A DNA stretch of 64,000 bases from a virus, in the IMG/VR virus record IMGVR_UViG_3300046454_000714, positions 23,528-87,527 of that record. The stretch is one strand, 5' to 3'. The position numbers were made by a program, and so were the translations under genes. Below are positions 985 to 64,000 of this stretch, piece after piece. Numbering within the stretch: the stretch's first letter is position 1; each line of letters starts with the position of its first letter. Below the pieces are notes generated by a model. The model worked only from the letters and a program-made list of their open reading frames with translations, searched no databases and was not told where the DNA came from.

Positions 985-1005
985 GCATCCTCCATGATCA
1001 CCCTC

Positions 1006-1021
1006 ACTTGGATATCCAAGT
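1006..1021. promoter_or_regulatory. Palindromic operator ACTTGGATATCCAAGT (left)
   Basis: Perfect 16-bp palindrome between divergent genes; identical copy at 2472-2487. Confidence 0.8.
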
Positions 1022-1098
1022 TGGCGCTCCGAAAGTAGCGCGGCTGTCGCGGAGCGTGCAAGTAGTGCGACGAACTGGATGGTGGGTACCGTCACGGC

Positions 1099-1572: not shown

Positions 1573-2352
1573 GTGATGACACCGAACCCGGCACGAGAGC
1601 ACCCCTACGAGAGGGTCGCCAACGAATTGCGCGCGGAGATCCTCAGGGGAGACCTCGCGCCCGGCGCGAAGCTGCCGTCCGAAAATGACCTCAAGGACCG
1701 CTTCGGCGTCACGCGGGCCACGGCGCGGAAGGGCATCGCCCTTCTCCGCATGGAAGGCCTCGTCACCTCGTTCCAGGGGAAAGGCGCGTTCGTCCGCGAG
1801 CGCCCGCACGTGAGCATGCGTCAGACCGGCAGCATCTACCGTGCGCGCCGATCGACTGGCGAGGCGAACTACAACGCCGAGGCGAAGGCGCAGGGGCAGA
1901 GGCCCAAGCAGGTGATTCGCGAGGTCGTCGAGACGGACGCGCCGGAGAAGGTCGCGGACCGTTTCGGCGTCGAGCCCGGCGCTCCGGTGGTAGTCCGCCG
2001 CCTGCTGTTTACGGTCGACGACCAGCCCATGCAGCTCTGCGATAGCTACTACGAGCGCTCCCTTGCGGCTGGCACGCCGCTTGCCGAGGCCAGGCTCATC
2101 AAGGGTGGCGCCAACTCGTTCATCGAAAACCCGGACGGGCCGATCGGTCGACGCATCGTCCAGTTCATCGAAGACCTCGACATCCGGATGCCGTACCCGC
2201 ACGAGATCGAGCTACTCGACATCCCGGCTGGCGTGCCCGTGGCGAAGGTGATGCGCACCGCTTACGACTCGGCGGGCGACGTCCTGGAAGTGCTCGACTC
2301 GATTGTTCCGTGCGATCGGCACACCTTCCGATACGTGATCGATGTGCCGTAG
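1573..2352 (+). CDS. GntR (HutC/UTRA) transcriptional repressor, Kor-like
   Basis: N-terminal wHTH (PYERVANELR...LPSENDL...FGVTRATARK...GKGAFV) plus UTRA C-domain. Confidence 0.93.
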   Translation: MMTPNPAREHPYERVANELRAEILRGDLAPGAKLPSENDLKDRFGVTRATARKGIALLRMEGLVTSFQGKGAFVRERPHVSMRQTGSIYRARRSTGEANYNAEAKAQGQRPKQVIREVVETDAPEKVADRFGVEPGAPVVVRRLLFTVDDQPMQLCDSYYERSLAAGTPLAEARLIKGGANSFIENPDGPIGRRIVQFIEDLDIRMPYPHEIELLDIPAGVPVAKVMRTAYDSAGDVLEVLDSIVPCDRHTFRYVIDVP

Positions 2353-2428: not shown

Positions 2429-2500
2429 ACTTGCATACCCAAGCTGCACTGGCTACGGTTGCACCAGTCGAACTTGGATATCCAAGTTCGGAAACCAAGT
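2429..2500. promoter_or_regulatory. Operator cluster (right)
   Basis: ACTTGCATACCCAAGC at 2429, CGAACTTGGATATCCAAGTTCG at 2469-2490, AGTTCGGAAACCAAGT at 2485-2500. Confidence 0.8.
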
Positions 2501-7210: not shown

Positions 7211-7507
7211 ATGCACGCCTATCTGATCACCGCGAAGCCCGGCCGGCTGCACCTCGCTGCCCGGTTCGCGGGCCGGTGGGCGCTGCGGGCCCTCGCCCTG
7301 ACCGTCATGTGCGCGCTGGGGGCGGTCGTGTTCGCGGTCCGCTTCGCACGCCCGGTCATCAACTACGCGGCCACCCGCATGGCGTGGCTGGAGCTGTGGG
7401 CCGCCTCGGTGACCGGGATCGGGCCGCTCGGGGCCGCTTTCGGCGCTGGGTTCACCGACGAACTCATCAAGGAATTCCACCGCGCCCGCACCGGCGCGCC
7501 CGCCTGA
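7211..7507 (+). CDS. Hypothetical membrane protein
   Basis: GAGAGGAG RBS; hydrophobic segments. Confidence 0.65.
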   Translation: MHAYLITAKPGRLHLAARFAGRWALRALALTVMCALGAVVFAVRFARPVINYAATRMAWLELWAASVTGIGPLGAAFGAGFTDELIKEFHRARTGAPA

Positions 7508-8181: not shown

Positions 8182-8182
8182 C

Positions 8183-8392
8183 ATGCGTTTTCTCGCCGCC
8201 CTGAACGGCCGGTACACGCTCCGCCAGTCGGCTCTGATCCTGCTGCCGACCATCGCCATGCTGCTCGTCGCGCAGTCCATCGCGATGGCGGCCGGTGCCG
8301 GTCACTTGCCCGCAGAGGTGATCGCCCTGACTGCCACCTTCGGCACCTTCTTCGCGATGACGACCGTCATCAACCGCCGCACCCGCACCTGA
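8183..8392 (+). CDS. Small two-TM membrane protein
   Basis: Two hydrophobic helices; GAGGAGG RBS. Confidence 0.7.
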   Translation: MRFLAALNGRYTLRQSALILLPTIAMLLVAQSIAMAAGAGHLPAEVIALTATFGTFFAMTTVINRRTRT

Positions 8393-8414
8393 ACCGAGAG
8401 GACACCGAACCGTC

Positions 8415-9764
8415 ATGACCGTCAGCCCGCCCCAGACGAACGGCCACAAGCGGCCGGCCCTGCCCGTAATCGGGGACTGGCGGCCGGTCACACCCCAGCC
8501 CGAGCCCGTCGAGGAACAGCGCAGCCCGGAGCCGGCCCCCGTTGAGACGCCGGAACTGGTCGCCAAGGCGCAGGCCGAGGCAATCCGCGCCCAAGCGTGG
8601 GCCGACGCCGAAGCCAGGCGGATCGCCGCCGAGGCTGAAGCGGACGCGGTGCGCGTCAAGGCGGAGGAGGAGGCGCGCAAGCTGCGGCTCGTCAACGACC
8701 GCGCCGAGCGCCGGGCTCGCGAGGAAGAAGCTGCGTCCGAGGAGCGCATCGCCGAGTCCAACCGGCGCCGCGACGAGGCCGAGCGGGCCCGCATCGCCGC
8801 CGCCCACCAGGCCCGGATCGACGAGCAGGTTGAGGCCCAGAAGGCGAAGGTCGTCGCCAAGGCGGACAAGAAGTGGCGCGGCTGGGCCATCGCCTTCTAC
8901 ACCCTGTGCGCCGCCGTCGCCCTACCGGTCCAGATCTCCGCGTTCTGGGACGAGCGCAAGCCGTGGATGGCCGGCGCCCCTGTCCTTCTGGAGATCGCCG
9001 CTCTCGTTGTCGCGTTCGGTACCGCCGCCGCGGTGGCGAACAAGCGCCCGCACTGGCACTTCCGTCTGATCACCTGGGTGCTCGCGTTCATCGCGGCCAG
9101 CGTCAACCTGTGGCACGGCATGCAGGAGTTCGACCCGGCAACCGCCGTCGGTACCGCGCTCGCCTCCGTGTTCGGGCCCGGCGTGTGGGACCTGCATGAG
9201 CACGGGCGGATCCGTAAGCGCGACGGCGTGCCGACCCGGCGGGAGCGGAAGGCGCAGGAGAGGGCGGCGAAGGACGAGGTCAAGCGGGCAGCTGCCGAAG
9301 AGGCACAGCGCGCCGCCGAGAAGGAGGCTGCAGCCAAGGCCGCCGAGGAGGCTGCGAGGAAGCTCGCCGATCGTCGCGCGAAGCTCTTCTCGAAGGTGTG
9401 GGAGCACGCCGAGAAGCTCGCCACGGATCTTGGCGAGACAGCCGTGACCGAGGCCATCTGGGAGCGCGCCAAGCTCGACGTCGAGGGCGCGCGGCCGGGC
9501 GAGTCGGCGGAGGTTTTCCGCATGCGTAACGCCGCCGAAGCGAGGGTCTCGGCGGCCCGCGAGAAGCGCTCCGTGAGCGGATCAACACAGCAGGTCGCTT
9601 CGCAAGTGCTCGGCTCCAAGATGCCTCGCGTCTACAACCCGCCCGCACGCCCCGGACGGCGCACCAAGGGCGACGTGAAATACGCGCCTGGCGCCAGCCG
9701 TCAGGCATCCATCGCGGCCCGTGAAGCCGTCGCCAAGAAGACCGCCCAGAAGGACCCGTCATGA
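8415..9764 (+). CDS. Coiled-coil, four-TM membrane protein (SpdB2/DUF2637-like spreading protein)
   Basis: Coiled coil, four hydrophobic helices, coiled coil; translationally coupled to the traB-like gene. Confidence 0.7.
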   Translation: MTVSPPQTNGHKRPALPVIGDWRPVTPQPEPVEEQRSPEPAPVETPELVAKAQAEAIRAQAWADAEARRIAAEAEADAVRVKAEEEARKLRLVNDRAERRAREEEAASEERIAESNRRRDEAERARIAAAHQARIDEQVEAQKAKVVAKADKKWRGWAIAFYTLCAAVALPVQISAFWDERKPWMAGAPVLLEIAALVVAFGTAAAVANKRPHWHFRLITWVLAFIAASVNLWHGMQEFDPATAVGTALASVFGPGVWDLHEHGRIRKRDGVPTRRERKAQERAAKDEVKRAAAEEAQRAAEKEAAAKAAEEAARKLADRRAKLFSKVWEHAEKLATDLGETAVTEAIWERAKLDVEGARPGESAEVFRMRNAAEARVSAAREKRSVSGSTQQVASQVLGSKMPRVYNPPARPGRRTKGDVKYAPGASRQASIAAREAVAKKTAQKDPS

Positions 9765-11860
9765 GCCTCGACATGAACCCGGAACTCCCGCCCGGCTGGG
9801 ACCTGACGAAGGTCATTCCCGGTGAGCTCGAAGTCCCCGACGACCTGTCCGGGGAACTCGACGACGACATCGCGCCCGGCATGCTCCTGCCCTACGAGCC
9901 GCGGCTGCCCGTCCTGCGGAAGACCGGGTCGGCGGCCATGGTCGTCGCCGCCACGACCGGGCGCGCGGTCGGACTGTCGGCGCGCGGCGGCTGGACGGCG
10001 ACCCGCTGGTTCGTCGCCGGCGCCCGCGCCGTCTCCTACCTCGGTTGGCGCTATGTCCGCACGCACGACTACCAGGAGGAGATCGGCGGCGTCACCTCGT
10101 CGGCCGACCACCGGCGCAACGTCGACCTCCGACACCGGCGGTGGAAATTCCTCGGGTGGGCGGCCGGCGCGACGGCGGCGCTCAATCTGGCCGGCTGGTG
10201 GGCGCTCGTTGCCCAGGCCGGGATGGCCGCTTCGGACTCGTGGTGGATCACGCCGGGCGTGCTCGCCCTGTCCGTGGCCGCCGCCGTCAGCTGGTACGGG
10301 CGCTACCGGCTCGGCAACCCAGGCCTCGCGCCCGAGCAGGCGATGGCGGACCAGGACGACCCGGAGTCGGATGAGCCGTTCCCGCTCGGCGTATGCCAGT
10401 CGCCGAGCCAAGTCGAAGAGTGCGTGTCCCGCGCACTCGCCTGGGAAGGCATCGGCACCCGCGCGGTTCGCGTGCTCGGCTACCGCGGCTGGGGCTGGGA
10501 GATCGACGTCATCCTCAAGGGCGCGGCGCCGGAGCAGGTCAACGCCGTGATGAGCAAGCTGGACTCCCACTTCGGCATCGGCAAGGGGCAGACCCTCTGC
10601 GAGCCGGACCCGGAGGACAACTCGCACCTCACGCTGCGTCTCGTGCAGTCGGATCCGTTCGCCGACATGCCCCGCCCGGCCGTGCACTCGCCGAACAGTC
10701 TGTCCGTGAAGGATGCGGTGGTGTACGGCCGCTGCATGGACGGCACTCTCTTCGAGGCGCGCCTGCGCGGAATGTTCATGATGATCATCGGTTCGTCCGG
10801 GTCGGCGAAGACCAAGGGCGCACTGCGCTGCCTCGCCGAGGTCATCACCGCATGCCGGGACGCCATCGCCATCGAGATGGACCCGGTCAAGGACGGAATC
10901 CGCGAGTTCTCCGAGGTCATGGCGCTGCCGCCGATCCGCGGGCCGAAGGAGTGCACGGAGAAGCTGCGCTGGCTGCGCGATATCGCGTCGGCCCGCAACC
11001 AGGTGAAGTCGGCCAAGGAGATGGGGGACCTGTGGGAGCCCACCCCCGAAGAGCCCGCCATCTTCGGCATCGTTGACGAGTTCATCTTCCTGCCGCGCGA
11101 GGCGAAGGAGCTCGCCATTGAGATCCTCCGCATCGGGCGCGAGACCGGCGTCTACCTCCTCTTCGCCGCCCAGGAAGCCACGCAGGACTCCCTCGGCGAC
11201 GCCATCGCCAGCGCCGTCACCTACCGGGTGATGCTCGCCGCGCGCAGCGAGGACATCCCCCTCGTCCTGGGCAAGGGGGCTTCCGCGATGGGCTACCGCC
11301 CGGACCGGTTGCGCCCGGCCGTCGATGACGAGCGGGTGTACGACGCCGGCAAGTTCTACGTCGCCGGCCCCGGCTTCGACCGGCCGGTGTTGTGGCGGTG
11401 GAACCGGTTCGAGCGCGACCAGATCCGGCAGGCGGTCAAGGACCGCAAGGACGCCGGCCGCCCTTGGTTCGACCATGCCAGCCTTGCCGCCGCCAACCTG
11501 CTGCACGTGATCCGTCGGGACGGGGTGGCGGGTGGGGCCTCTCTGGCTGACCGCCTCGTTGCCCTCGATGAGCAGGGCGGCGTGGAGGACGCGGCGGTGG
11601 TCGCCGTCCTGCTTCGGGCCTTCGGCGGCAAGACGTTCCTGCCGACGACCGAGGAACTGCTTCCCGCGCTTGCCGACGCAGGCGTCCAGATGGATGCGAA
11701 TGGTCTTGCCCAGCTCTTCCGGAAGCATGCCCCGTCGGTGACTGCGAGCCGTCAGGAGTGGGATGGCCGGCCGCAGGTCCGCGGCTGGTCCCGGGAGTCC
11801 GTCGAGCAGGCCGCAGCAGGGCTGTTGGACCCGGCTATGGCCCGTCTACGGGCCGCCTAA
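9761..11860 (+). CDS. traB: TraB-like FtsK/SpoIIIE DNA translocase (Streptomyces plasmid/AICE transfer protein)
   Basis: N-terminal TM helices; Walker A GSSGSAKT; EMDPVK; Walker B IFGIVDEF; RIGRETGV..L.AAQ; C-terminal wHTH-like region ending VRGW. Confidence 0.85.
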   Translation: MSLDMNPELPPGWDLTKVIPGELEVPDDLSGELDDDIAPGMLLPYEPRLPVLRKTGSAAMVVAATTGRAVGLSARGGWTATRWFVAGARAVSYLGWRYVRTHDYQEEIGGVTSSADHRRNVDLRHRRWKFLGWAAGATAALNLAGWWALVAQAGMAASDSWWITPGVLALSVAAAVSWYGRYRLGNPGLAPEQAMADQDDPESDEPFPLGVCQSPSQVEECVSRALAWEGIGTRAVRVLGYRGWGWEIDVILKGAAPEQVNAVMSKLDSHFGIGKGQTLCEPDPEDNSHLTLRLVQSDPFADMPRPAVHSPNSLSVKDAVVYGRCMDGTLFEARLRGMFMMIIGSSGSAKTKGALRCLAEVITACRDAIAIEMDPVKDGIREFSEVMALPPIRGPKECTEKLRWLRDIASARNQVKSAKEMGDLWEPTPEEPAIFGIVDEFIFLPREAKELAIEILRIGRETGVYLLFAAQEATQDSLGDAIASAVTYRVMLAARSEDIPLVLGKGASAMGYRPDRLRPAVDDERVYDAGKFYVAGPGFDRPVLWRWNRFERDQIRQAVKDRKDAGRPWFDHASLAAANLLHVIRRDGVAGGASLADRLVALDEQGGVEDAAVVAVLLRAFGGKTFLPTTEELLPALADAGVQMDANGLAQLFRKHAPSVTASRQEWDGRPQVRGWSRESVEQAAAGLLDPAMARLRAA

Positions 11861-11966
11861 CCCCCGTCTTTGCCCCGTCTATGGCCCGACTAGGCGATCA
11901 AGAGAAGCCGCAGGTAGCCGGGCCATAGACGGGTCTTAGTCGGGCCAAAGACGGCCCATAGACACC
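11830..11966. repeat. clt-like locus: two opposed arrays of 8-bp repeats, 11-bp period
   Basis: CCCGTCTA-like units at 11830, 11841, 11852, 11863, 11874, 11885; reverse-complement TAGACGGG-like units at 11915, 11926, 11937, 11948, 11959. Confidence 0.88.
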
Positions 11967-12010
11967 CTATTGATCCACATATGCGAAGTTCTTGAGAGGG
12001 AGTCCCGATC

Positions 12011-12646
12011 ATGGCAGCGAAGCGTCCCGCAAGGCGGCAGCCGGCCCGCCGCAAAGCCCCGGCGCGCCGCCGCACCACCGCGACCGCCACCCGACGGAAA
12101 CACCCCGCCCGACGCGTCAAAATCCCCCGCAAAGGACCGCTCACCGCCCGCCTCGGCAACTGGCTCGTCCTGCGAGTCATCGCCCCCATGGTCGACACCC
12201 GGCGGGATGAGATCCGCTCCCGCAAGGACGCCGCGATCCTCCGCGCCACCCACGAGGGCTGCAAGGTCTGCCACGGCAACGGACAGATCTTCACCAAGGG
12301 CAAGGACGGCTCCTTCACCGGATCGAAGCCCTGCACGGCCAAGCCGACCAAGGAGAAGGTCTCCCGCTGGGAGGTCAACAAGGCCGCCCGCATGGGGGGC
12401 GACCGGCGGACCGGACTCATTGGCTACTCGTGCCCCTGCGGCAAGAAGGAGAAGCCCCGCTACCGCGACGCCAAGGAAGCCACCAAGGCCCTGCGCGGCC
12501 ACGAGAAGCAGAAGCACGGCGGCAAGAGCGTCGGCGGCACCTGGTACGCACAGCAGACCGCGGCGGCAGCCCTCGCCCCCTCGCAGCCCGCACCCGCACC
12601 CAAGACCAGCATGCGTAAGGCGCCGGCGAAGGCAGGCACCCCGTGA
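12011..12646 (+). CDS. Basic Zn-finger protein (CxxCxGxG, CPCG)
   Basis: K/R-rich N-terminus; CKVCHGNG. Confidence 0.75.
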   Translation: MAAKRPARRQPARRKAPARRRTTATATRRKHPARRVKIPRKGPLTARLGNWLVLRVIAPMVDTRRDEIRSRKDAAILRATHEGCKVCHGNGQIFTKGKDGSFTGSKPCTAKPTKEKVSRWEVNKAARMGGDRRTGLIGYSCPCGKKEKPRYRDAKEATKALRGHEKQKHGGKSVGGTWYAQQTAAAALAPSQPAPAPKTSMRKAPAKAGTP

Positions 12647-12846
12647 CCCCGACTCTTCTGTGCCCGCGCGGCTGCGGAACCGGCTTCGCCTCGATCACCA
12701 ACGAGTTCGAGCCGCTCCAAGGCCGCGGCAACAACGGCATGGCGATCATGACCGTCACCGGCGAATGCAACGGCTGCGGACTCCTCTGCGACAACGAGAT
12801 CGAAGGCCGACTCGAAGAACTCACCATCGTCACCCGAAACGGATAG
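12643..12846 (+). CDS. Small Zn-ribbon protein
   Basis: CPRGCG...CNGCG; GTGA overlap. Confidence 0.6.
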   Translation: MTPTLLCPRGCGTGFASITNEFEPLQGRGNNGMAIMTVTGECNGCGLLCDNEIEGRLEELTIVTRNG

Positions 12847-12869
12847 CCCACCCGAAGGAGACCCGCACC

Positions 12870-13358
12870 ATGCTCGACCTGCCCGAGCCGAAGCCCACCG
12901 CCACCGCGACCGGGCAGGACCGCAACGCCATCATCGACCAGCGCGCCGACCAGTTCCTCGCCGCCATCAACGACGCCGCAGCCACCTACTACCGCGACGA
13001 CAGCCCGACCCCCACCGTCGGCACCACCCCACCCGTACCCCAGCCCGGCCGGCCGCCGATGAGCCAGAGAGCCACCGACGCCAGCGCGTTGATGCTGTCC
13101 GGCGGCATCGCCTCCGTGTTCGTCAGCGGCGGCATCAGCCTCATCCTCTGGTCGTCCGGGCACGCCGATTCGACCGTCATCGCCTGGATGAGTGCTGGCC
13201 CGCCCATGGCCTTCCTGTCGCTGAAAGCCCTCATCAAGGGCGTCAAGCGCGCGACCGTACCCGACATCCACGTGCACAACTACAGCGGGCCCGTCACCCA
13301 GCACCACCGCACCTCGAACAACCGCAGCATCTGGAACAAGAACATCAACAGCCAGTGA
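12870..13358 (+). CDS. Membrane protein, Spd-like
   Basis: PVPQPGRPPMSQRATDAS followed by two TM helices and a H/T-rich tail. Confidence 0.7.
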   Translation: MLDLPEPKPTATATGQDRNAIIDQRADQFLAAINDAAATYYRDDSPTPTVGTTPPVPQPGRPPMSQRATDASALMLSGGIASVFVSGGISLILWSSGHADSTVIAWMSAGPPMAFLSLKALIKGVKRATVPDIHVHNYSGPVTQHHRTSNNRSIWNKNINSQ

Positions 13359-13370
13359 AGGAGCCCCGCC

Positions 13371-13616
13371 ATGTTCCATCCCGAGCTCGGCCCGATCGCC
13401 CGCCTGTTCATCGCCGTCGCCGTGTTCGCCCCGTCGCTGTCCGCCGGATACGCCGTGACCGTCGCCCTGATGGCGGTCGGCGTGCCGGAGATTGTCGCCG
13501 CGGTTCCGGCGGCGCTCACCGCCCTCGCCGGGATTCTCGCCCTCACCTACGGCGCCGAGTCCCTCGCCAACTGGCGGGCCGACGCGGTCGCCACGAAGGG
13601 AGCAGCGGGCGCCTGA
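13371..13616 (+). CDS. Small membrane protein
   Basis: AAGGAG RBS; hydrophobic. Confidence 0.7.
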   Translation: MFHPELGPIARLFIAVAVFAPSLSAGYAVTVALMAVGVPEIVAAVPAALTALAGILALTYGAESLANWRADAVATKGAAGA

Positions 13617-13808: not shown

Positions 13809-13861
13809 GACGGCAGTGTGGCGCGGGCGGTGGGGGAGCGGGGCGGGAATCGGGAAGCGGG

Positions 13862-14137: not shown

Positions 14138-14141
14138 GGAT

Positions 14142-14190: not shown

Positions 14191-14223
14191 GGCATCGCCA
14201 AGGGAACCAGCAGGGGAGACGGC

Positions 14224-16670: not shown

Positions 16671-16672
16671 GC

Positions 16673-27876: not shown

Positions 27877-28332
27877 ATGCCCGCCAATGGACCACTGCCG
27901 AAGGACCCCGGTCAGCGACGCCGGCGCAACGCCGACTTCGTAGCACCGACGACCCTTCCGGCCGACGGGCCTGACGGACCGACCCCTGAACTGCCAGGCG
28001 GCCACGACTACGACAGTCGCACGCTCGCCTGGTACGAGACGTGGCGGAACAGCCCGCAGGCTGCAACGTTCCTGATGACGGACTGGCAGCGGCTGCACAT
28101 GCTGGCCGAGCTGGTTCAGCAGTACTGGGAGGAACCCAGGAAGGATCTGCTCTCGGAGATCCGGCTGAATGAGGCTTCCCTCGGAGGCACGGCCGCAGAC
28201 CGCATTCGGCTTCGCTGGACCGTTGCCGAGCCGGACATCGAGCCCGCTGTACGCCGTTCTGCCGGCGCCCGCGGTGGGGCTTCTCGCCGTGACCGGGTTC
28301 TGAAGGTCGTCGATGGCCAGGCGGATAGCTGA
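27877..28332 (+). CDS. Terminase small subunit
   Basis: GPLPKDPGQRRRRN...WYETWRNSPQA...TDWQRL...EIRLNEASLGGTAADRIRLRW. Confidence 0.88.
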   Translation: MPANGPLPKDPGQRRRRNADFVAPTTLPADGPDGPTPELPGGHDYDSRTLAWYETWRNSPQAATFLMTDWQRLHMLAELVQQYWEEPRKDLLSEIRLNEASLGGTAADRIRLRWTVAEPDIEPAVRRSAGARGGASRRDRVLKVVDGQADS

Positions 28333-29932
28333 CCCGGACCGCTTCACCTCGCTCGGCTTCGAGGCCATCGACTGGATCGAGCACTACCTCTGCCACGGGC
28401 CCGGCGACGTACAGGGCGAGCCGTTGCTCATCGACGACGAGATGGCCGCCTTCATCGCCAAGGCTTACCAGCTCGACCCGGTGACGGGCCGCCGCAAGGT
28501 CAACCGTGCGTTCCTGTCCCGACCGAAGGGCCGGGCCAAGAGCGAACTCGCCGGCGCGCTGGTGTGTTTTGAGGCCCTGGGGCCGTGCCGCTTCGACGGC
28601 TGGGATGCCGAGAGCGACCCGGTAGGCCGCGCACAGGTGTACCCGTTCATCCGCTGCCTCGCGACGGAAGAGAACCAGGCGGGCAACACCTACGACAACG
28701 TCACCGCGATGCTGGAGCACCTCGTCGAGAACTTCGGCGACGAGTTCCCAGGCATCGACTTGGGTCGTTCGGCGCAGACATCGAGCCGCATCTTCATCGA
28801 GGGCGGCGGCGAGATCGTGCCGTCGACATCGTCGGGCGCGGCCAAGGATGGTGGCAAGGAGACGTTCGCCGTCTTCGATGAGATCCACCTCTACGTCCAT
28901 CCCGAGTTGCGGGCGATGCACAAGACGGTGCGCCGCAACCTGGTGAAGCGGCGCAGGGCCGAGCCGTGGTCGCTGGAGACATCGACGATGTATGCGGTCG
29001 GCGAGAACTCGGTAGCTGAGGCGACGCACGAGTACCACAAGGCGGTCGTCTCGGGCCGGGTGCGCGACGGCGGCCTGCTCTTCGACCACCGCGAGGCCCC
29101 GCACGTCGAGGATCTGCACGACGACGACCAGCTCATGCCCGCGCTGGAGTTCGTGTACGGCGACGCGGCGAAGTGGATGGACCTGGAGCGGATCGCCAGC
29201 GACATGCGCGAGCCCGACACCGATCCGGCAGACGCCCGGCGCTACTTCCTCAACCAGCCCGGCACTGCCTCGGCGAAGGCCTTCGACCCGGGCCGCTGGC
29301 GGGAGTTGGCGGACTCGCGCTTCATCGTTCCGGCGAAGGAAGCGATCTCGATCGGCTTCGACGGCTCGAAGTGGAGCGACTCAACGGGCTTTGTGGCAAC
29401 CCAGCTGGATACGGGCCACCAATGGGTGCTCGGCGTCTGGGAGTCGCCGGCGAACAAGCAGGAAGCCGAGTCGTGGGAAGTCCCTGAGGTCGAGGTCAAC
29501 GCCGTCCTGGATGACGCGATGAACACGTGGCGGGTCGTGCGCCTGTACGCGGACCCGGCGTACTACGAGGAGACGATCGCGGGCTGGGCCGGCAAGTACG
29601 GCCCGAAGGTGGTCACCGAGTGGTGGACGCACCGGCGCCGGCAGATGGCGTTCGCCCTGCGCGCGTACAAGACGGCGATGACGGGCGGCGAGCTGTCGCA
29701 CGACGGCAGTGACGCCTTCGCACGGCACATCGCCCAGGCGGTGAAGCGGAACGCGGGTGTGAAGGACGACGAGGGCAAGCCGATGTGGGTGATCCAGAAG
29801 GATCGCCACGATTCGCCCCGAAAGATCGACCTCGCGATGGCGGGCTGCCTGTCCTGGGAGGCCAGGCGGGACGCGATCAAGGCGGGCGGCAACGAGCCGC
29901 CGCGCTCCCGGAAAACAACTGTGATGCGCTGA
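28313..29932 (+). CDS. Terminase large subunit
   Basis: SRPKGRAKSE Walker A; FAVFDEIH Walker B; IGFDGS nuclease motif; RKIDLAMA. Confidence 0.95.
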   Translation: MARRIADPDRFTSLGFEAIDWIEHYLCHGPGDVQGEPLLIDDEMAAFIAKAYQLDPVTGRRKVNRAFLSRPKGRAKSELAGALVCFEALGPCRFDGWDAESDPVGRAQVYPFIRCLATEENQAGNTYDNVTAMLEHLVENFGDEFPGIDLGRSAQTSSRIFIEGGGEIVPSTSSGAAKDGGKETFAVFDEIHLYVHPELRAMHKTVRRNLVKRRRAEPWSLETSTMYAVGENSVAEATHEYHKAVVSGRVRDGGLLFDHREAPHVEDLHDDDQLMPALEFVYGDAAKWMDLERIASDMREPDTDPADARRYFLNQPGTASAKAFDPGRWRELADSRFIVPAKEAISIGFDGSKWSDSTGFVATQLDTGHQWVLGVWESPANKQEAESWEVPEVEVNAVLDDAMNTWRVVRLYADPAYYEETIAGWAGKYGPKVVTEWWTHRRRQMAFALRAYKTAMTGGELSHDGSDAFARHIAQAVKRNAGVKDDEGKPMWVIQKDRHDSPRKIDLAMAGCLSWEARRDAIKAGGNEPPRSRKTTVMR

Positions 29933-29947: not shown

Positions 29948-31333
29948 ATGGCCCTCGATCTGGAACCGGATGCCTGGTTGAAGCGGCTGATCCACTGCCA
30001 TGACGGTGACCTGCCGCAGTTGAGGCTGATGGACAGCTACTACGAGGGCACGCAGCCTCTGTCGTATTTGGCTCCGGAGATTCAGTCGGAACTCTCGGAC
30101 CGGATGCGCCAACTGGTCATCAACTGGCCGCAGTTGGTCGTGGATGCCTTGGATGAGCGTCTGGACGTCGAGGGCTTCCGGTACGCGGACTCCGAGACGA
30201 CCGCGGCGGATCTGTGGGACGTGTGGCAGGCCTCCGACATGGACGAGGGTTCGCAGCAGGCCCACGTGGATGCTCTGGCCCTGAAACGCTCCTACGTGAT
30301 CATCGGCGCGAATGAGGACGACGAGGCGAACCCGATCGTGACCGCGGAGTCGGCGCTGGAGGTGTTCGCGGAGAGGGATCCGCGGACTCGCCAGGTGGTG
30401 GCGGCGGTGAAGCGTTGGGATGAGCCGTCGGCGGCCGGGTCGGCGCCGGTGAAGTGGGCGACGCTGTATCTGCCGAATGCGCGGATGACGTTCGAGCAGC
30501 AGAAGGGCGCTTGGGTCGAGGTCGACCGGGATGAGCACAACCTCGGCGAGGTGCTGGTTGTTCCGTTGGCGAACCGGCCGCGACTGCGGCACCTGGATGG
30601 CACGTCCGAACTCCGCTCGGTCATCCCGATCTCGGACGCGGCCTGCAAGATCGCCTCGGACATGATGGTCAGCGCGGAGTATCACGCGATGCCGCGCCGG
30701 TGGGCGACGGGCATGTCGCGTGACGACTTCGCCGACGAGAACGGGCAACCGCTGGGCGCGATGTCGGCGCTGGCAGGCCGCATGTGGACGAACGAGAGCA
30801 ACGAGGTGAAGTTCGGGCAGTTCCAGGAGGCCCAGCTCTCCAACTTCCACGAAACGATCAACGTTCTCGCCCGCCTGGTGGCCGCGATCACGGGCCTGCC
30901 TCCCGCATTCCTCGGCCTGGCGACGGATCAGCCTCCGTCTGCGGATGCGATCCGCGCGTCGGAGGCCCGCCTGGTGAAGCGCGCGGAGCGCCGTCAGCGT
31001 GCGTTCGGCGAAGCCTGGGAGCGGGTCATGCGCCTCGTTCTCCTGGTGCGGGACGGCGAGTTGGACCCGCGGACCCGCAAGCTCGAAACCGTGTGGCGGG
31101 ATCCGTCGACGCCGACGTTCGCGCAGAAGGCCGACGCGGTCGTCAAGCTGCACGCCTCCGGCATTCTGCCGACGGAGCAGGCGTGGGAGGACTTGGGCTA
31201 CAGCGCAGTGCAGCGGGCCCGGATGCGGGGCATGCAGGACGATGCCCTGACCCGGATGACGGCCATGGACCTGCACCAGATGTCGACAGCCCAGGATCCG
31301 GCGCCCGTTGAGGCGCCTCCCGTCGGCGGCTGA
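29948..31333 (+). CDS. Portal protein (SPP1 gp6-like)
   Basis: YYEGTQPL...NWPQLVVDALDERL...SADAIRASEARLVKRAERRQRAFGEAWE. Confidence 0.95.
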   Translation: MALDLEPDAWLKRLIHCHDGDLPQLRLMDSYYEGTQPLSYLAPEIQSELSDRMRQLVINWPQLVVDALDERLDVEGFRYADSETTAADLWDVWQASDMDEGSQQAHVDALALKRSYVIIGANEDDEANPIVTAESALEVFAERDPRTRQVVAAVKRWDEPSAAGSAPVKWATLYLPNARMTFEQQKGAWVEVDRDEHNLGEVLVVPLANRPRLRHLDGTSELRSVIPISDAACKIASDMMVSAEYHAMPRRWATGMSRDDFADENGQPLGAMSALAGRMWTNESNEVKFGQFQEAQLSNFHETINVLARLVAAITGLPPAFLGLATDQPPSADAIRASEARLVKRAERRQRAFGEAWERVMRLVLLVRDGELDPRTRKLETVWRDPSTPTFAQKADAVVKLHASGILPTEQAWEDLGYSAVQRARMRGMQDDALTRMTAMDLHQMSTAQDPAPVEAPPVGG

Positions 31334-34337: not shown

Positions 34338-35669
34338 ATGACCCCCACCATGTCCGCGGTTCGCCCGCGGCTCCACCGCGCCCCGCGGCCGTGGTTCAAG
34401 CTGGACCGGCACGCCGGTGTCCGGCCGTCCCTGCCCGCCGGCATCCAGGCGATGCTGCAGAACGGCATCCTCGACCGTGTCTTCCGCGACGCGCTGGTGC
34501 CGAACTTCCTGTTCCCTCAGATCGCAGACGCTGAGCCGTGGATGGGCGGGCTGGGCGACACGAAGACGTTCACCCGCAAGGGTCTGCTCGCCCCGGTGAC
34601 GACTCCGGTGACGGGTTCGGACCCGTCGGCGGCGACGTACAGCATCGAGCAGTGGTCCGTGACGATGGACCAGTACGCGAACTCGATGGACACCAACATG
34701 CTCGGCTCGGCGATGGCGCTGGCCAGCAAGTTCCTGGCGGACGTCGAGAACCTGGGCATCAACGCCGGGCAGACCATCAACCAGGTGGCCCGCAACAAGC
34801 TGTACAAGGCGTATGCGGGCGGCCGGACCTGGGTGACCACGGCCGGCTCCTCGGACACGTCGATGATCGTCAACTCGACGGACGGCTTCACCACCGTCAT
34901 GGTCAACGGCGTCCCGACCGCCGTGTCCGCGTCGAACCCGCTGACCGTGTCGGTCGCGGGTGTCGCGAACACGGTGACCGGCGTCAACACCGGCACCAGC
35001 ACGCTGACCCTGGGCACCGCCCGGGTGGATGTCGCCGGTGACTACGTGACCGCGGCGAACGCCCCGGTCTCGGTCCGGGCGACCGGTAACTCGCCCTACG
35101 ACCTGTCGTCGTCGAACGTCGTGACGTTCGCGAACTTCCGGGCCGCGGTGGCGCGTCTGCGGAAGATGGCGGTTCCGACGGTGGGCGGCTACTACGTCGC
35201 CCACATCGACCCGGACACGGAGGCGCAGCTTTTCGCGGACGCCGACTTCAAGCAGGCCCTTCAGGGCCGCGTGGACTCGCCGATCTACACGGAGCTGTCC
35301 ATTGGCCGGTTCGCGGGCATCGACTGGGTGCGCAACCTGGAGGCGCCGACCATCACCAACGGCGGCTCTGCGGGCACCCTGACGGTGCACCGGCCGATCG
35401 TGCTGGGTGCGAACGCGCTGATGTCGGCGCCGTTCGAGGGCACCAACACCCTTCTCGCCGGTACCGGCGTCGAGGACGTGCCGGAGATCCGCACCATCAA
35501 CGCCGCCCCCGGTGTGGACGTCACCCTGCTGGTGCGCCCGGCGCAGGACCGGCTGCAGCAGGTCATCGCCTCGACCTGGTCGTGGGTCGGCGACTACGGC
35601 GTTCCGTCGGACGCGGGCACGGGCGACGCGGCGCTGTACAAGCGCGGCGTCGTCATCGAGCACGCCTGA
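34338..35669 (+). CDS. Major capsid protein
   Basis: Position after the scaffold gene, size, LGINAGQTINQVARNKLY...YVAHIDP...YKRGVVIEHA. Confidence 0.9.
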   Translation: MTPTMSAVRPRLHRAPRPWFKLDRHAGVRPSLPAGIQAMLQNGILDRVFRDALVPNFLFPQIADAEPWMGGLGDTKTFTRKGLLAPVTTPVTGSDPSAATYSIEQWSVTMDQYANSMDTNMLGSAMALASKFLADVENLGINAGQTINQVARNKLYKAYAGGRTWVTTAGSSDTSMIVNSTDGFTTVMVNGVPTAVSASNPLTVSVAGVANTVTGVNTGTSTLTLGTARVDVAGDYVTAANAPVSVRATGNSPYDLSSSNVVTFANFRAAVARLRKMAVPTVGGYYVAHIDPDTEAQLFADADFKQALQGRVDSPIYTELSIGRFAGIDWVRNLEAPTITNGGSAGTLTVHRPIVLGANALMSAPFEGTNTLLAGTGVEDVPEIRTINAAPGVDVTLLVRPAQDRLQQVIASTWSWVGDYGVPSDAGTGDAALYKRGVVIEHA

Positions 35670-51110: not shown

Positions 51111-52301
51111 ATGGCCACCTTCCATGCCGCGATCGTCCACCCCGACCAGACGGTCACCTACTGCGGCGAGGTCGACCAGGACCACGTCGACACGGTCCGC
51201 GCGGTCGCCGCCATCGAGGACGTGCCGCGGTTCGTCAAGGAAAACCCGCGAACCCCGGGTGCATTCTTCGTGCTGCGCCCGGACGATGAGGGCGGCGACC
51301 TCGACTGGTACGTGCCGACAGACGCCGCTGCGTACACGGTCCGCGCGCCCGACCCCGACCCTGCGGGCGCCGTCGCGACGCTCACGGCAACGGCCACGAC
51401 GGGCCCCGCCTACATCGACGGCGCCGAGCGGCTCGGCGGGCAGGTCATCGGCGGCGCCATGGACCATCCGGAGTCGGGGCCCCGGTTCACCTGGCACGTC
51501 ACGGTGTCGCCGCAGGGGTATTTCACCTCGATGGCTTCCTACCTGATCGCCGCCGGGTTCGAACCGCAGGTGCTGTACGACCCCAAGACGGACAGGCTCG
51601 GCCAGTTCGGGCCGCTCACCCAGTCGGCGCGGGCGCTGCAGAACGACGGCGCGAGGCGCACCAACCGCGAGGGCAAGGTCAACATTCAGGTCGAGGTCGT
51701 CGCGATGCCGTCCCCGCCCTGGACGAATGGTTTCGACCCGGCGGCCAAGCCCAACTTCCGCAAGCTGCTGGCCGCTGGCCGTGCGCACGGCATCCCCGGC
51801 GTCTGGCCTGCCGGACCGCCGGTCTCATCGTCGAGCCAGGCGATGCCGCGCACCCGCAGCATCTGGCAGTCGAAGGCTGGGCACTACGGGCACTGCCACG
51901 TGCCGGCAAACAGCCATTGGGACCCGGGCGGCATCGACGTCAGCAAGGTCCCCGGCAAGGCCGTCACCCCGAAGCCGGCGCCCACCCCGAAGCCCGCGGC
52001 CAAGCCGAAGGTCAGCGTCGCGCACGTCGCCACCGCGGCCAAGCACGACCCCTCTGCCGCGCAGGGCCACGCCACCTACCGGGCGGAGACCCTCCTCGTC
52101 GAGAAGGCCTTGCACGCCGAAGGCCTCCTCGACCAGCAGTACGTCGACGGCAGCTTCGGCAGCCTCACCGTCACCGCCTACGCCAAGTGGCAGCGCTCCA
52201 AGGCCGGCGGCTCGTACAGCGGCACCGCGGCCGACGGAATCCCCGGCCAGACCTCCCTCAGCAAGCTCGCCGCGAGACACGGCTTCACCGTCGTCGCCTG
52301 A
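51111..52301 (+). CDS. Endolysin: amidase_2-type domain plus peptidoglycan-binding domain
   Basis: WHVT...NREGKVNIQVEV...GHCHVPANSHWDPG; VDGSFG...ADGIPG..SL..L. Confidence 0.9.
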   Translation: MATFHAAIVHPDQTVTYCGEVDQDHVDTVRAVAAIEDVPRFVKENPRTPGAFFVLRPDDEGGDLDWYVPTDAAAYTVRAPDPDPAGAVATLTATATTGPAYIDGAERLGGQVIGGAMDHPESGPRFTWHVTVSPQGYFTSMASYLIAAGFEPQVLYDPKTDRLGQFGPLTQSARALQNDGARRTNREGKVNIQVEVVAMPSPPWTNGFDPAAKPNFRKLLAAGRAHGIPGVWPAGPPVSSSSQAMPRTRSIWQSKAGHYGHCHVPANSHWDPGGIDVSKVPGKAVTPKPAPTPKPAAKPKVSVAHVATAAKHDPSAAQGHATYRAETLLVEKALHAEGLLDQQYVDGSFGSLTVTAYAKWQRSKAGGSYSGTAADGIPGQTSLSKLAARHGFTVVA

Positions 52302-52322
52302 CTTGGAAGAAACGAGAACCTC

Positions 52323-52694
52323 ATGAAGATCAATCGTGAACCGGCGGCGCTGCTCGCGTTCGTCGCGGTCGGCATCAAGCTGCTGGCCGCGTTCGGCGTG
52401 GGCCTGAGCAGCGACCAGCAGGCCGTCCTCAACGCGGTCGCCGCAGCCGTCGTCGGCCTCGTCGTGGCCGTCCTCGCGCATGACGCGCTCGCCGCACCCC
52501 TGTACGGCTTCAGTCAGGCCGCACTCGCGCTCGCCGTCGGCTTCGGCCTGCACTGGTCCGCCGACCAGCAAGCCATCGTGCTGTCGTTCGTACAGGTCGC
52601 CATCGCCATGTTCCTACGCACCCAGATCACCGCGAAGACGCCGGGACCGGCCGCAGCGAAGCACGTGGCGTCTGCTTCCACGCAGGCCCTCTGA
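52323..52694 (+). CDS. Holin
   Basis: REPAALL; several TM helices; internal SSDQQA/SADQQA repeat. Confidence 0.85.
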   Translation: MKINREPAALLAFVAVGIKLLAAFGVGLSSDQQAVLNAVAAAVVGLVVAVLAHDALAAPLYGFSQAALALAVGFGLHWSADQQAIVLSFVQVAIAMFLRTQITAKTPGPAAAKHVASASTQAL

Positions 52695-55812: not shown

Positions 55813-56466
55813 ATGGAACTCAACTCCCCAGACCTCCTCGCGCCAGTCGGCGGGGGAGGGGCCCTCGTCGGCTACGCCCGCGTCAGCACCAAGGGCCAAC
55901 TCCTCGACCGACAGATCGCAGCCCTCGAAGCCGCCGGATGCCAACGGATCTTCAGCGACAAGAAGTCCGGCAAGAACACCGAGCGCGAGGAGCTCTGGAA
56001 GGCCCTCGACTACTCGCGCGGAGGCGACACCATCGTCGTTCCATCGCTCGACCGCCTCGGTCGCTCCATCCAAGACCTCATCACCATCGTCGCCAGCCTC
56101 CGCGAGCGCGCCATCGGCTTCCGCTCCCTGCACGAGTCCCTCGACACCACCACCCCCGGCGGCCGGCTCGTCTTCCATGTCTTCGCCGCCCTCGCCGAGT
56201 TCATCCGCGAACTCATCGTGCAGGGCACCCATGAGGGCCTCGCAGCTGCGCGCGCCCGCGGGCAGCGACTCGGTCGGCCGCCGGCGATGGCTGAGGAGCA
56301 GATCCGCCACGCGTACACGATGCTCACCGACCCCGAGGCGTCCATCACCTCGATCGCCAAGCTCCTCGGCGTCAGCCGCACCACGATCTACAAGTACGTG
56401 CCCGAACTCGCGGCCGGGCGAGCCTCCCTCGTGTCCGCCACCGGCCGCAAGGAAGTCACGTCATGA
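55813..56466 (+). CDS. Serine resolvase/invertase
   Basis: VGYARVST...SLDRLGRS...C-terminal HTH. Confidence 0.95.
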   Translation: MELNSPDLLAPVGGGGALVGYARVSTKGQLLDRQIAALEAAGCQRIFSDKKSGKNTEREELWKALDYSRGGDTIVVPSLDRLGRSIQDLITIVASLRERAIGFRSLHESLDTTTPGGRLVFHVFAALAEFIRELIVQGTHEGLAAARARGQRLGRPPAMAEEQIRHAYTMLTDPEASITSIAKLLGVSRTTIYKYVPELAAGRASLVSATGRKEVTS

Positions 56467-62792: not shown

Positions 62793-63088
62793 TTTGGGAG
62801 ACGGTTTGGGAGACGGTCACCCAGGTCGGACCCAAGCGGGCACCCAACGAATCCAGCCGAACGCAAGCGGATTCCGATGCTGTACTGGCGAGACACTGAA
62901 TCGCCGCAGGTAAGGAGCACCCAACGAGGGGTCTGGGGCGACGCGGGGGATCGTCTCAGGCGGGCGGTACGGGGGTCTGCGCAAGGTCGCGCGGCCCCCT
63001 TTTCCATGCAGCAGGACACGCGTAGAGCGATGATCCTGAACCCGCCTGCGTGATCTTCATTCTTCGTCCTGGGAGATTTCTGGGAGAT
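62793..63088. other. Probable attP with integrase arm-type repeats
   Basis: TTTGGGAGACGG x2 (62793-62816) and CTGGGAGAT x2 (63069, 63080) flank about 250 bp next to the 3' end of int. Confidence 0.65.
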
Positions 63089-64000
63089 CCACTTTCGGTC
63101 CGCGCTCCGAACGCCGCGGGCGAGGCTCCTCCCACTCCCGGTGGTGGTCCTTCACTCCCGCCGAGGCCTCCCACAGCTTCTGCAGATCCGCCGCGATGTC
63201 CAACTCCATCGGCAGCGTCGTGTGGCTGTAGGTCCCCTCAACTCCAGGGATAACGTGCCGCATCCGCTCCTCGACCGCAACCCTCGGATGCTTCAGCTCA
63301 TCGAGCCACACCTTCATGCTGTGGCGCAGGCCGTGCGGCACCATGTCCTCGATCCCGGCGACCGCCTTCATGTCCGGCAGCCGCGCGGGCCGGCCGAGCT
63401 TGTCCGGCGTGGCCGTGTGGCCATCGACCCAGCGGCGCCAGATGTCCGAGTAGAAGTAGGCAGACGTCGACATCTTCTTGCCGTTGGCCGACGGGAACAC
63501 CCACGGCGACTTGTGCGAGGCCAGCACCTCGCGCAGCAGCTCCGCGAGGAACGGCGGCAGGACGATGCTGCCCGAACTCCCGTACTTCGGATCGACCTGG
63601 GCCGGCTTGCCGTCGACGTACTGGTGCTGCTCCTCCACCAGTAGCCGGAAGCCCTGCCCGTGGTCTTCGAGGACCAGATGTTCCCGGCGCAGGCCGGCCG
63701 CCTCGGATATGCGCAGCCCGCAGTAGGCGATTGTGAGGACGAGGCCGTAGCCGACGACGCCGCGCATCTCCCGGGCGTTGCGGGCCAGCAGCAGGGCCTG
63801 GCGCGGGGTCGCGAGGACAGTGTCGTCCTTCTTCGGCTTGCCCTTGTACTTGCCGCGGCGGCGCGCCTTCAGGGTGGGGACCGGGTTGTCGGCGCGGACC
63901 TTCGAGGCGACGGCGTCGTCGAACATGACCCGCATCACCGACATGACCGACTTGACATAGCGGGGCTTGTACCGCTTACGCAGCTGCTGCTCCCAGATCT
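63057..64000 (-). CDS. int: Tyrosine integrase, 5' part beyond the window
   Basis: AYCGLRISE...PHGLRH...RMRH...EGTYSH catalytic motifs. Confidence 0.93.
   Translation of the reverse strand, partial: IWEQQLRKRYKPRYVKSVMSVMRVMFDDAVASKVRADNPVPTLKARRRGKYKGKPKKDDTVLATPRQALLLARNAREMRGVVGYGLVLTIAYCGLRISEAAGLRREHLVLEDHGQGFRLLVEEQHQYVDGKPAQVDPKYGSSGSIVLPPFLAELLREVLASHKSPWVFPSANGKKMSTSAYFYSDIWRRWVDGHTATPDKLGRPARLPDMKAVAGIEDMVPHGLRHSMKVWLDELKHPRVAVEERMRHVIPGVEGTYSHTTLPMELDIAADLQKLWEASAGVKDHHREWEEPRPRRSERGPKVDLPEISQDEE

Follow-up and report, generated by a model that had tools for sequence, protein, structure and literature searches.

The window analysed here is the last 64 kb (64,000 bp) of the 87,527-bp virus record IMGVR_UViG_3300046454_000714, for which CheckV predicts 93% completeness and 'linear' ends. 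The GC content is 65–72% across the window, and DNA of the record is present in rhizosphere and root metagenome runs of 2023. Between approximately 6.7 and 13.6 kb the window carries a row of closely packed genes on the plus strand, which includes a gene for P0001, a TraB-like DNA translocase of the FtsK/SpoIIIE family, and directly upstream of it a gene for an SpdB2-like membrane protein, P0002. An array of short phased repeats resembling a clt site straddles the stop codon of the translocase gene (traB), and small membrane proteins are encoded on both sides of the P0002-P0001 pair. The positions of all features are listed in Table 1. The initial annotation, drawn from the sequence alone, had described a transfer module of this kind inside a complete siphophage, and its components were confirmed: the full-length translocase, the coupled upstream protein with a coiled coil and four membrane helices, the small membrane proteins (g49, g51, g55 and g56), the clt-like repeats, and intact head, tail and lysis genes (TerL, portal, head, tail, tape measure, endolysin and holin).

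P0001 contains a P-loop ATPase core of the FtsK/SpoIIIE type, with a Walker A motif (GSSGSAKT) at residue 344 and a Walker B motif (IVDEF), and matches phrog_12531, 'FtsK/SpoIIIE-like protein', with an E value of 2.4e-69. The best NCBIfam model is plasmid_TraB NF041214 (E 3.9e-9, residues 257-542), and a profile of 38 sequences of the P0001 family matches FtsK motor structures (2IUU) across the Walker B region (E 0.0076). The relationship to the TraB and FtsK families that was predicted initially is seen in the best model and in the structures, with a score that lies below the TraB cut-off. Members of NF041214 above the cut-off were found in 18 of 151 sampled genomes, and G001, which carries a 65% identical homologue of P0001, has no NF041214 match at E 1e-20. 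A match of the C-terminal domain of P0001 to pentatricopeptide repeat proteins in the PDB profile search (E 0.2) is at chance level and was discarded, and the protein Atlas places this domain in an unnamed cluster (0.83).

The P0001 family is large. Of 8000 candidates scored, at least 335 are homologues with an E value of 0.001 or less, and the best 120 of these are 665-718 aa long and 52-91% identical to P0001. The homologues are mostly from Streptomyces genomes and soil metagenomes, several of them on contigs of 82-95 kb, and close homologues are also present in many soil and rhizosphere viral contigs. P0001 is matched at E 1e-10 or better in 33 of 401 sampled genomes of Streptomyces species. 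Close homologues occur in 6 of the 401, with 46-65% identity, near full length in five and over residues 8-608 in G316, and some are within multi-megabase contigs. The traB gene is under purifying selection. The ratio of non-synonymous to synonymous substitution rates (dN/dS) against the closest alleles is 0.17 (G002 and G003) and 0.24 (G004), and these values are probably overestimates because a GC content of ∼90% at third codon positions (GC3) constrains the synonymous rate; distant pairs (dS >0.7) are saturated and were not relied on.

The features expected of an SpdB2 protein, namely a coiled coil, four membrane helices and a C-terminal domain within about 410-450 aa, encoded directly upstream of the translocase, are all found in P0002. 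AERK-rich helical stretches flank three strong and one weak hydrophobic helix, and the stop codon overlaps the P0001 start (ATGA), indicating translational coupling. The Pfam models DUF2637 (PF10935) and SpdB_N do not match P0002 even at E 10, and no match was found in 50,697 phage records. Over 111 aa, the membrane core of P0002 shares 32% identity (E 5e-14) with the protein encoded just upstream of Tra on the Streptomyces plasmid NZ_CP108056, which itself matches DUF2637 at E 0.0014 (19 bits, under the cut-off of 22.8), and the protein upstream of Tra in pFP1 is annotated as DUF2637. In UniRef, homologues with 63-67% identity to P0002 are named 'SpdB2 protein' or 'DUF2637', and an SpdB2/DUF2637 cluster is among the neighbours of P0002 in the protein Atlas (0.86), which is a lead only.

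The repeat array consists of two opposed arms, the left of which overlaps the final codons of traB. Exact matches to TAGNCGGGNC occur 10 times in the window, and 7 of these lie in 11828-11946, within 120 bp. When one mismatch is allowed the pattern is not enriched across the window (72 observed versus 78 expected), and the signal is therefore one of clustering. The region is also the densest AGACGG cluster of the 87.5-kb record. In all 10 elements in which this position was compared, an array is present at the traB stop codon and invariably comprises two opposed sets with 11-bp phasing; after it, a conserved ATTGATCC...GATCATG stretch runs into g54. A cis site of short repeats adjoining traB, as is characteristic of TraB-type systems, is thus present. 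Known clt regions contain 8-bp repeats that are recognised by the cognate TraB via its C-terminus (excerpt of PMC4447253), and the clt of pIJ101 is made up of an inverted repeat and direct repeats (excerpt of PMC3583192).

For comparison with related elements, four viral records (G002-G005), a viral fragment (L008) and 100-kb stretches in four Streptomyces genomes were used, and synteny was assessed by tblastn with 115 gene calls; 8 elements were fully compared. The genes for g49, P0002, P0001 and g54 are in the same order in all 8, while the structural modules are mosaic, the terminase being recognisable in 6 (27-36% identity), the portal in 6 and the capsid in one. This synteny indicates that the block is a stable part of the phage lineage and not an insertion peculiar to one genome. 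G001-G005, G164, G316 and G215 all have phage hallmark genes, either on the same record or at 6-26 kb downstream with the same strand orientation. With the addition of L008, G406 and G419, which share the capsid, the elements examined in which TraB is 46-91% identical number 11, and every one of them is a phage or prophage. The phage-gene check did not extend to G115 and G365, where close TraB matches are at contig ends or on small contigs, or to 27 genomes with 27-34% matches.

The possibility that the block is an actinomycete integrative and conjugative element (AICE) nested in a prophage was also considered. AICEs are defined by Int, Rep and Tra in an att-bounded unit of 9-25 kb that is missing from close relatives of the carrier (PMC3218068). 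No Int or Rep was found in or beside 6.6-13.7 kb in Pfam, PHROG and NCBIfam scans, no att-like repeat bounds the block, the flanks are common to the relatives, and the sequence exchange described below for G406 lies inside the operon. A nested AICE was therefore rejected, in agreement with the initial proposal that the block is owned by the phage; the outcome that would have spoken against that proposal, close relatives lacking the block with att sites at its edges, was not encountered, as the core of the block is in 8 of 8 relatives. The accompanying statement that there is no separate integrase holds for the edges of the block, but the record itself includes a tyrosine integrase and a resolvase. 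At the nucleotide level, megablast searches with positions 8000-14000 of the window returned nothing from phages, and those with 8000-20000 returned just two short unrelated matches from plasmids.

The C-terminus of TraB and the repeat motif vary together. In 7 elements a CCCGTCT-like motif accompanies a C-terminus of the P0001 type. In G215 the motif is CCCGGC and the C-terminus includes an altered wing-like segment. In G316 the motif is TGCTCA, and the last ∼130 residues of TraB, ending in NPRGYKLEAL, cannot be aligned with P0001. In G406 an unalignable C-terminus with the same NPRGYKLEAL ending is found together with GCTCG repeats, which are of the GCTC(A/G) type shared with G316.

The most informative of these is G406, a 99% complete genome found via capsid sharing, in which the terminase is 100% identical to that of the record and most genes are 85-100% identical. 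Nucleotide identity to the window is 96.7% over 6455-7213, 92.4% over 7194-7522 and 90.3% over 7960-9505, falls to 75.6% in traB (9742-11520), and is 97.6% over 11999-13600. Between 11520 and 11999 there is no alignment. The unalignable piece corresponds exactly to the C-terminal domain of TraB and the array, and the break ends 12 bp before the start of g54. The whole exchange, from inside the SpdB2-like gene (∼9505) to 11999, is within the operon. Domain and adjacent site have been replaced together in two independent contexts, as would be predicted for a cognate TraB-clt pair, and the co-variation in G316, G406 and G215 provides indirect support for a C-terminal domain that reads the clt repeats. 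As g54 is 100% identical in G406 though the repeats differ, its product is not the repeat reader. The SpdB2-like protein has also diverged in G406 (77% aa identity compared with 95-100% for its neighbours) and may be part of the exchanged specificity unit.

The array region can also form a long hairpin (-77.1 kcal/mol, z -5.3, a value reached by 0 of 200 shuffles), for which a role as a terminator or in processing is possible. Phased iterons are, moreover, typical of replication origins. On these grounds the array could be an origin, could terminate or attenuate transcription between traB and g54, or could bind some other protein, with the TraB-like protein acting in exclusion or host takeover, for which the PHROGs category 'moron, auxiliary metabolic gene and host takeover' can be cited. 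However, the 11-bp direct phasing within the arms is not needed for a hairpin, the motif changes along with the TraB C-terminus while g54 remains identical, and the overlap with the coding end of traB in 10 of 10 elements corresponds to the reported position of clt beside tra. We consider an array of this other kind quite improbable.

Phages that share the capsid were surveyed for what occupies the position of the translocase gene, using 17 of 80 capsid loci (viral contigs of ≥53 kb) and three translocase queries. A P0001-type protein was found in 3 of the 17 contigs and a pZL12.71c-type protein in 2, and 8 contigs match the FtsK-like family phrog_1358. Any translocase was found in 10 of the 17, and in 6 of the 7 contigs of ≥82 kb. 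In G409, where the terminase is 95% identical, the g49 and g50 homologues have downstream of them a gene for a protein of 702 aa with its Walker A motif at residue 354 (phrog_1358, E 4.5e-28), and G407 encodes a 759-aa protein (phrog_1358, E 1.5e-7) with 26% identity to the core of P0001. The three queries gave no translocase in G412, G415, G421, G422, G413, G416 and G418. These include G412 (97% complete, 91.6 kb), G415 (59.7 kb, with direct terminal repeats), the 55-kb proviruses G421 and G422, and all contigs of 54-67 kb. The presence of alternative translocase types at the same position in related phages argues for selection on the function, which looks to be selected for in the larger genomes of the capsid-sharing group without being essential.

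These data also bear on whether the block could be passive cargo, that is, a captured plasmid or AICE transfer region, a moron or a decaying remnant with no role in the spread of the phage. Such a history would be in keeping with the homology of the module to plasmid transfer operons and with the seven capsid-sharing contigs in which the three queries detected no translocase. It is set against the lack of a bounding integrase, Rep or att, intact and coupled open reading frames (ORFs), the low dN/dS values, the synteny in 8 of 8 relatives, the alternative translocases in the same slot, and a family of at least 120 homologues at 52-91% identity that forms its own clade apart from plasmid proteins. 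Passive carriage is accordingly very unlikely.

In a tree of 32 rows that clade comprises the phage proteins (23 rows, SH-aLRT support 89). Its sister group is composed of two plasmid Tra proteins of the pFP1 type and a BE-phage protein, and six genome-encoded NF041214 TraB proteins are found across a very long branch. Long-branch attraction was flagged by the tool for Jay2Jay, and L009 was omitted from alignment A2. In phage records, P0001 has 89 matches, all from Streptomyces phages and all with <60% identity. The 40 matches listed of these 89 are from 130-kb Streptomyces phages that we take to belong to cluster BE, and their FtsK-like DNA translocase (e.g. Jay2Jay gp111) also belongs to phrog_12531, with ∼30% identity to P0001 over 69-82% of the length (E 1e-57 to 1e-60). 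Cluster BE phages are lytic. The BE gene is located among tRNA genes without an annotated SpdB2-like neighbour, and no phased array was found at the 3′-end of the FtsK-like gene of Jay2Jay.

In a further explanation the pump serves segregation and not transfer. Like FtsK, SpoIIIE and SffA, it would clear or partition phage or host DNA across closing septa, with the array as a loading or orientation site, and genomes would reach each compartment or spore of one mycelium and none would enter others. The FtsK-type ATPase core is compatible with this, as is the retention of a 30% identical homologue by the lytic BE phages, which have no gain from conjugation; an extra inheritance device could also be useful while the phage is episomal, since partition genes were not found in the record. 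On the other hand, the nearest relatives on cellular elements are plasmid Tra proteins in GntR-Spd-Tra operons and not chromosomal FtsK, and a spreading apparatus is suggested both by the SpdB2-like partner and by g55, which has its homologue in the pZL12 tra locus. Segregation on its own is unlikely, and it overlaps with movement of phage DNA within a mycelium, which is one half of the interpretation preferred here.

That interpretation is that the block is probably a phage-owned module of the Streptomyces type for the transfer and spreading of double-stranded DNA. The TraB-like ATPase would assemble into a ring associated with the membrane, at septal cross-walls or where hyphae touch, and its C-terminal domain would recognise the phased array (clt) that starts within its own last codons. 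The ATPase would then drive the circular phage genome, either excised or replicating, into adjoining compartments or hyphae, within one mycelium and perhaps also between mycelia, assisted by the SpdB2-like four-helix protein and by g49, g51, g55 and g56. The cassette is predicted to be part of a long rightward early operon downstream of operator palindromes around the GntR/UTRA gene, and from this position it would probably be off in the lysogen and be induced along with the early genes. A phage so equipped would have two routes of spread, as virions and by virion-independent movement through the mycelium.

Several observations weigh against a transfer function. P0001 scores 35.6 of the 800 bits required by the NF041214 equivalog model, PF01580 (FtsK_SpoIIIE) does not match it even at E 10, and its identity to a genome-encoded NF041214 TraB is 23% by BLASTP (E 5e-5). 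The N-terminal Ala/Gly/Trp-rich segments (residues 56-74, 133-151 and 160-178) are weakly hydrophobic, with Kyte-Doolittle means of 1.07-1.27, and no winged-helix signature is detectable by sequence in residues 575-699 using the PDB profile or the Atlas. The hairpin formed by the array belongs here, as does the distance of 6 kb between the GntR gene and the cassette, and no further copies of the palindrome were found in the window or near the cassette. The BE-phage homologue, which has neither partner nor array, suggests that a phage translocase need not mean transfer, and the seven capsid-sharing contigs in which no translocase was found indicate that the function is dispensable for this phage type. 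No RNA runs carrying the stretch are listed.

Table 1. Position and basis of the features of the transfer block, followed by other features of the window.
Feature	Position	Strand	Description or evidence
SpdB2-like protein P0002, 449 aa	8415..9764	+	N-terminal coiled coil, four-helix membrane core, C-terminal charged helices
TraB-like FtsK/SpoIIIE-family DNA translocase P0001, 699 aa	9761..11860	+	phrog_12531, Walker A/B
clt-like site	11828..11963		Two opposed arrays, 11-bp-phased, core CCCGTCT (left) and AGACGGG (right), 22-bp spacer
g49, 98-aa single-helix membrane protein	7211..7507	+	Conserved cassette member; hydropathy, tblastn
g51, 69-aa two-helix membrane protein	8183..8392	+	Hydropathy
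g54, 211-aa very basic protein (53 K+R), five Cys (CxxC + CxC)	12011..12646	+	Conserved cassette member
Putative 67-aa Cys-rich ORF (two CxxC pairs), coupled to g54	12643..12846	+	ORF list; no family match
g55, 162-aa membrane protein	12870..13358	+	pZL12.70c homologue
g56, 81-aa protein, two or three hydrophobic helices, final gene of block	13371..13616	+	Hydropathy
Operator-like perfect palindrome, left copy	1005..1022		ACTTGGATATCCAAGT exact at 1006
GntR/UTRA (HutC-type) regulator	1576..2352	+	Pfam GntR E 2.4e-19, UTRA E 1.2e-20
Operator-like perfect palindrome, right copy	2471..2488		ACTTGGATATCCAAGT exact at 2472; between GntR terminator and first rightward gene (2531)
Terminase large subunit (TerL)	28313..29932	+	tblastn: annotated terminases in 2042 phage records match, best 41.6%
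Portal protein	29948..31333	+	phrog_104, E 4.4e-144
Major head protein	34338..35669	+	phrog_1357, E 1.1e-24
Tape measure protein, 1762 aa	40840..46128	+	phrog_10780, E 2.9e-84
Endolysin and holin	51111..52694	+	phrog_17214 E 2.4e-56; phrog_9752 E 2.8e-27
Serine resolvase	55813..56466		Does not bound transfer block
Candidate attP core	62931..62967		∼90 bp past integrase stop codon; contig breaks in 4 rhizosphere metagenome runs
Tyrosine integrase, outside transfer block	63057..63944	-	Pfam Phage_integrase E 2.7e-8

The remaining genes of the cassette differ in how widely they are conserved. Homologues of g49 are found by tblastn in 8 of 8 relatives with 39-88% identity, in G406 (95%) and in G409 (83%), and it has no family match. 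The g54 gene likewise has homologues in all 8 relatives and no family match in Pfam, PHROG and NCBIfam scans, and its start at 12011 is backed by the conserved GATCATG and by the N-terminus in relatives. A relationship of g54 to the plasmid 'RRQRL zinc-binding protein' was ruled out, as there is no similarity. The g51 protein gives a weak match to DUF7534 (E 0.0055, below the cut-off) and is 98% identical in G406, and g56 is 94% identical in G406; g51 is absent from the tblastn results in the other 8 relatives, where g56 was also not found. The g55 protein has homologues in 3 of 8 relatives and is 97% identical in G406; it shares 40-42% identity with pZL12.70c (E 3e-13 and 1.6e-12) and 42% with the product of the equivalent gene of NZ_CP109172. 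An ORF of 71 aa at 7966-8181, which was missed by the gene caller, fills the gap between g50 and g51 and is rich in Arg, Ser and Thr, with a GC3 of 0.92.

The position of the block behind a Kor-like GntR regulator, as described in the initial annotation, needs to be qualified. A GntR/UTRA gene flanked by palindromes is present, but it is located upstream at the distance given above and does not adjoin the block. The regulator is 29% identical to the GntR protein pZL12.80 and is a candidate repressor of the rightward early operon, with a putative Kor/TraR-like role. The ACTTGGATATCCAAGT palindrome is 16-18 bp long, and with a copy containing 3 mismatches at 2429 there are 3 matches compared with 0.02 expected, and 0 of 100 shuffles gave as many. 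The GntR gene is followed by a terminator-like hairpin at 2373-2399, and a consensus scan found no plus-strand terminator-like sites in 2400-13600. The cassette could thus be co-transcribed with the first of the early genes.

Two further regulatory features were noted. Operator-like repeats at 14140-14190, ATTGTAAGGGG, ATTGCAAGGGG and, in inverted orientation, CCCCTTACGAT, overlap a pair of promoter-like sites that face each other between a leftward gene for a 91-aa helix-turn-helix protein (13862-14137) and a rightward gene (14224-14544), and the region looks like a second genetic switch directly downstream of the transfer block. In addition, a second GntR-like helix-turn-helix stretch at 61412-61627 (minus strand), in a region without gene calls, shares 35% identity with the N-terminal portion of the GntR protein pZL12.80.

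The late module in the right half of the window is of the siphovirus type and complete. Scaffold, major tail and Dit-like minor tail proteins are also encoded there, as judged by PHROG matches, and the tape measure protein implies a long non-contractile tail. The terminase is exchanged independently of the head genes: in G003 the portal is 98% and the capsid 100% identical to those of the record and the terminase just 30-36%, and in G406 it is the terminase that is 100% identical. To the left of the window the record encodes a PD-(D/E)XK exonuclease, an AAA_24 ATPase, a DNA methylase and a DnaC/IstB-like loader. No tRNA genes were found in the window. ParA (AAA_31) and ParB_N were not found in the 93%-complete record and tblastn with pZL12 ParA and ParB returned nothing; no RepA search was made.

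A candidate attP lies beside the tyrosine integrase gene. Contigs from 4 metagenome runs branch at 62931-62967 with alternative flanks on either side, and in run X1 core unitigs of 32-35 nt in this segment have a depth of 21-23, compared with 8-9 in the flanks. We infer that the segment represents attP together with integrated junctions, a pattern that strain variation could resemble. It contains no tRNA gene and has no Rfam match. Metagenome contigs extend 0.9-3.2 kb past the right end of the record (position 64000 of the window), which, with the CheckV estimate, indicates that the record was truncated or opened at an arbitrary point beside the integrase gene. These contigs are uninformative as to whether the record joins its own left end, and parts not covered in X3 and X4 are not counted as evidence.

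The combination of phage and transfer functions is itself not new, given the precedent of pZL12 and pFP4 and a proposal of 2015 for SpdB2. Three aspects appear to be new: a large, distinct clade of TraB-like pumps in integrase-bearing temperate siphoviruses, a helically phased bipartite clt that overlaps the stop codon of its own pump, and the joint exchange of C-terminus and site between near-identical phages. No paper describing integrative phages with TraB, SpdB2 and clt was found in a literature search that covered few subscription journals and no supplements, and the Samy prophage paper makes no mention of FtsK or TraB.

If the module works as proposed, virions would not be the sole route of spread, which would change the reading of plaque size, burst, lysogen spread and phage-mediated gene flow in mycelial bacteria, and the two plasmid-phage cases, pZL12 and pFP4, would be extended to chromosomally integrating phages. 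More tentatively, and with less confidence than not, integrative 'conjugative prophages' might be a widespread class in Streptomyces, a lineage of temperate siphoviruses of 82-95 kb with a self-addressed TraB-clt system that carries their double-stranded genomes through a mycelium and from one to another with no need of virions, and in which the DNA-reading domain and its site are swapped between near-identical phages as one specificity cassette in the manner of immunity regions. This would imply selection for private transfer addresses that avoid cross-mobilisation or exclusion by co-resident elements. The natural swap of C-terminus and array offers a ready pair of cognate and non-cognate sites for the study of how TraB-type pumps read DNA, and the pump with its ∼140-bp site could provide compact parts for moving large DNA between Streptomyces strains.

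The SpdB2 of the plasmid pSVH1 is described with a coiled coil at its N-terminus, followed by four membrane helices and a domain at the C-terminus; it interacts with TraB and is essential for intramycelial spreading (excerpt of PMC4447253). P0001 resembles pSVH1 TraB and the NF041214 proteins in length (about 640-770 aa), in the FtsK-like ATPase core and in the presence of a GntR regulator in the element, and the phage block shares with the pSVH1 system a repeat-bearing cis site by the gene and a four-helix coiled-coil partner. It differs in the low NF041214 score, in the very long branch between the two groups and in the phage repeats, which are 11-bp phased and form two opposed arrays.

P0001 matches 47 Streptomyces or Kitasatospora plasmids with ∼28-35% identity over the ATPase core. 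The closest are the Tra proteins of the theta-type plasmids pFP1 (NC_006912) and NZ_CP108056, which share 34-35% identity with P0001 over an ATPase core of about 390-400 aa (E 2e-50 to 6e-60). The operons of both follow the same logic as in the phage, with divergent GntR genes, small ORFs and a 480-aa protein in the DUF2637/SpdB2 position followed by Tra. The plasmid Tra proteins are longer than P0001 (863 aa as annotated for NZ_CP108056, with open frames of 891 aa in NZ_CP108056 and 935 aa in pFP1), their C-terminal third does not align with it, and the plasmids have no phage genes. FtsK carries its gamma domain at the C-terminus. In the NZ_CP108056 Tra (L049:18981-21572) an FtsK-gamma domain is at the N-terminus (residues 20-73, E 2.2e-18), and it is at neither end of the phage proteins. 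NZ_CP109172, a plasmid of 87.8 kb, was discarded as a relative, as its DUF2637 protein and the adjoining 656-aa protein are unlike P0002 and P0001, and its matches are limited to g55, GntR, g4 and part of the tape measure gene.

The Streptomyces plasmid-phages pZL12 and pFP4 are described as conjugating and also forming infective particles (excerpts of PMC4170104 and PMC3583192), pFP4 being attributed to Chen et al. 2012 as cited in the former. Transfer of pZL12 is reported to need a major tra gene and adjacent genes (excerpt of PMC3583192), and pSLE1 is a syntenic relative of 86 kb (PMC4487206). Thoma et al. suggested in 2015 that phage homologues of SpdB2 spread phage DNA, their references 34 and 35 being a 1999 genome paper in Nucleic Acids Research and the paper on the VWB genome (excerpt of PMC4447253). 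P0002 is an SpdB2-like protein encoded by a phage. The 1999 reference is presumably the phiC31 genome.

The pZL12 record, 'Streptomyces phage ZL12' (GQ919031; Zhong et al. 2010), is circular and 90,435 bp long. Its GntR gene (.80) is divergent from a row that encodes a membrane protein (.73c), a 766-aa protein (.72c), an FtsK-like protein (.71c) and.70c, followed by packaging and head genes. The pump and SpdB2-like protein of pZL12 belong to a different, distantly related sequence lineage (P0002 and pZL12.73c, 27% identity, E 6e-5; P0001 and pZL12.71c, 22% in the Walker A-B region, E 0.004), with the additional.72c between them. pZL12 also differs from the phage studied here in its ParA/ParB, found alongside an integrase/recombinase, and the phage differs from pZL12 in having an integrase with a candidate attP and relatives in chromosomes. 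The two are nevertheless alike in overall plan, both being of ∼90 kb with GntR, membrane protein and FtsK-like tra genes just upstream of the terminase and late genes, and in both a complete set of tailed-phage genes and an FtsK-like tra locus, the combination that characterises plasmid-phages, are found in one replicon.

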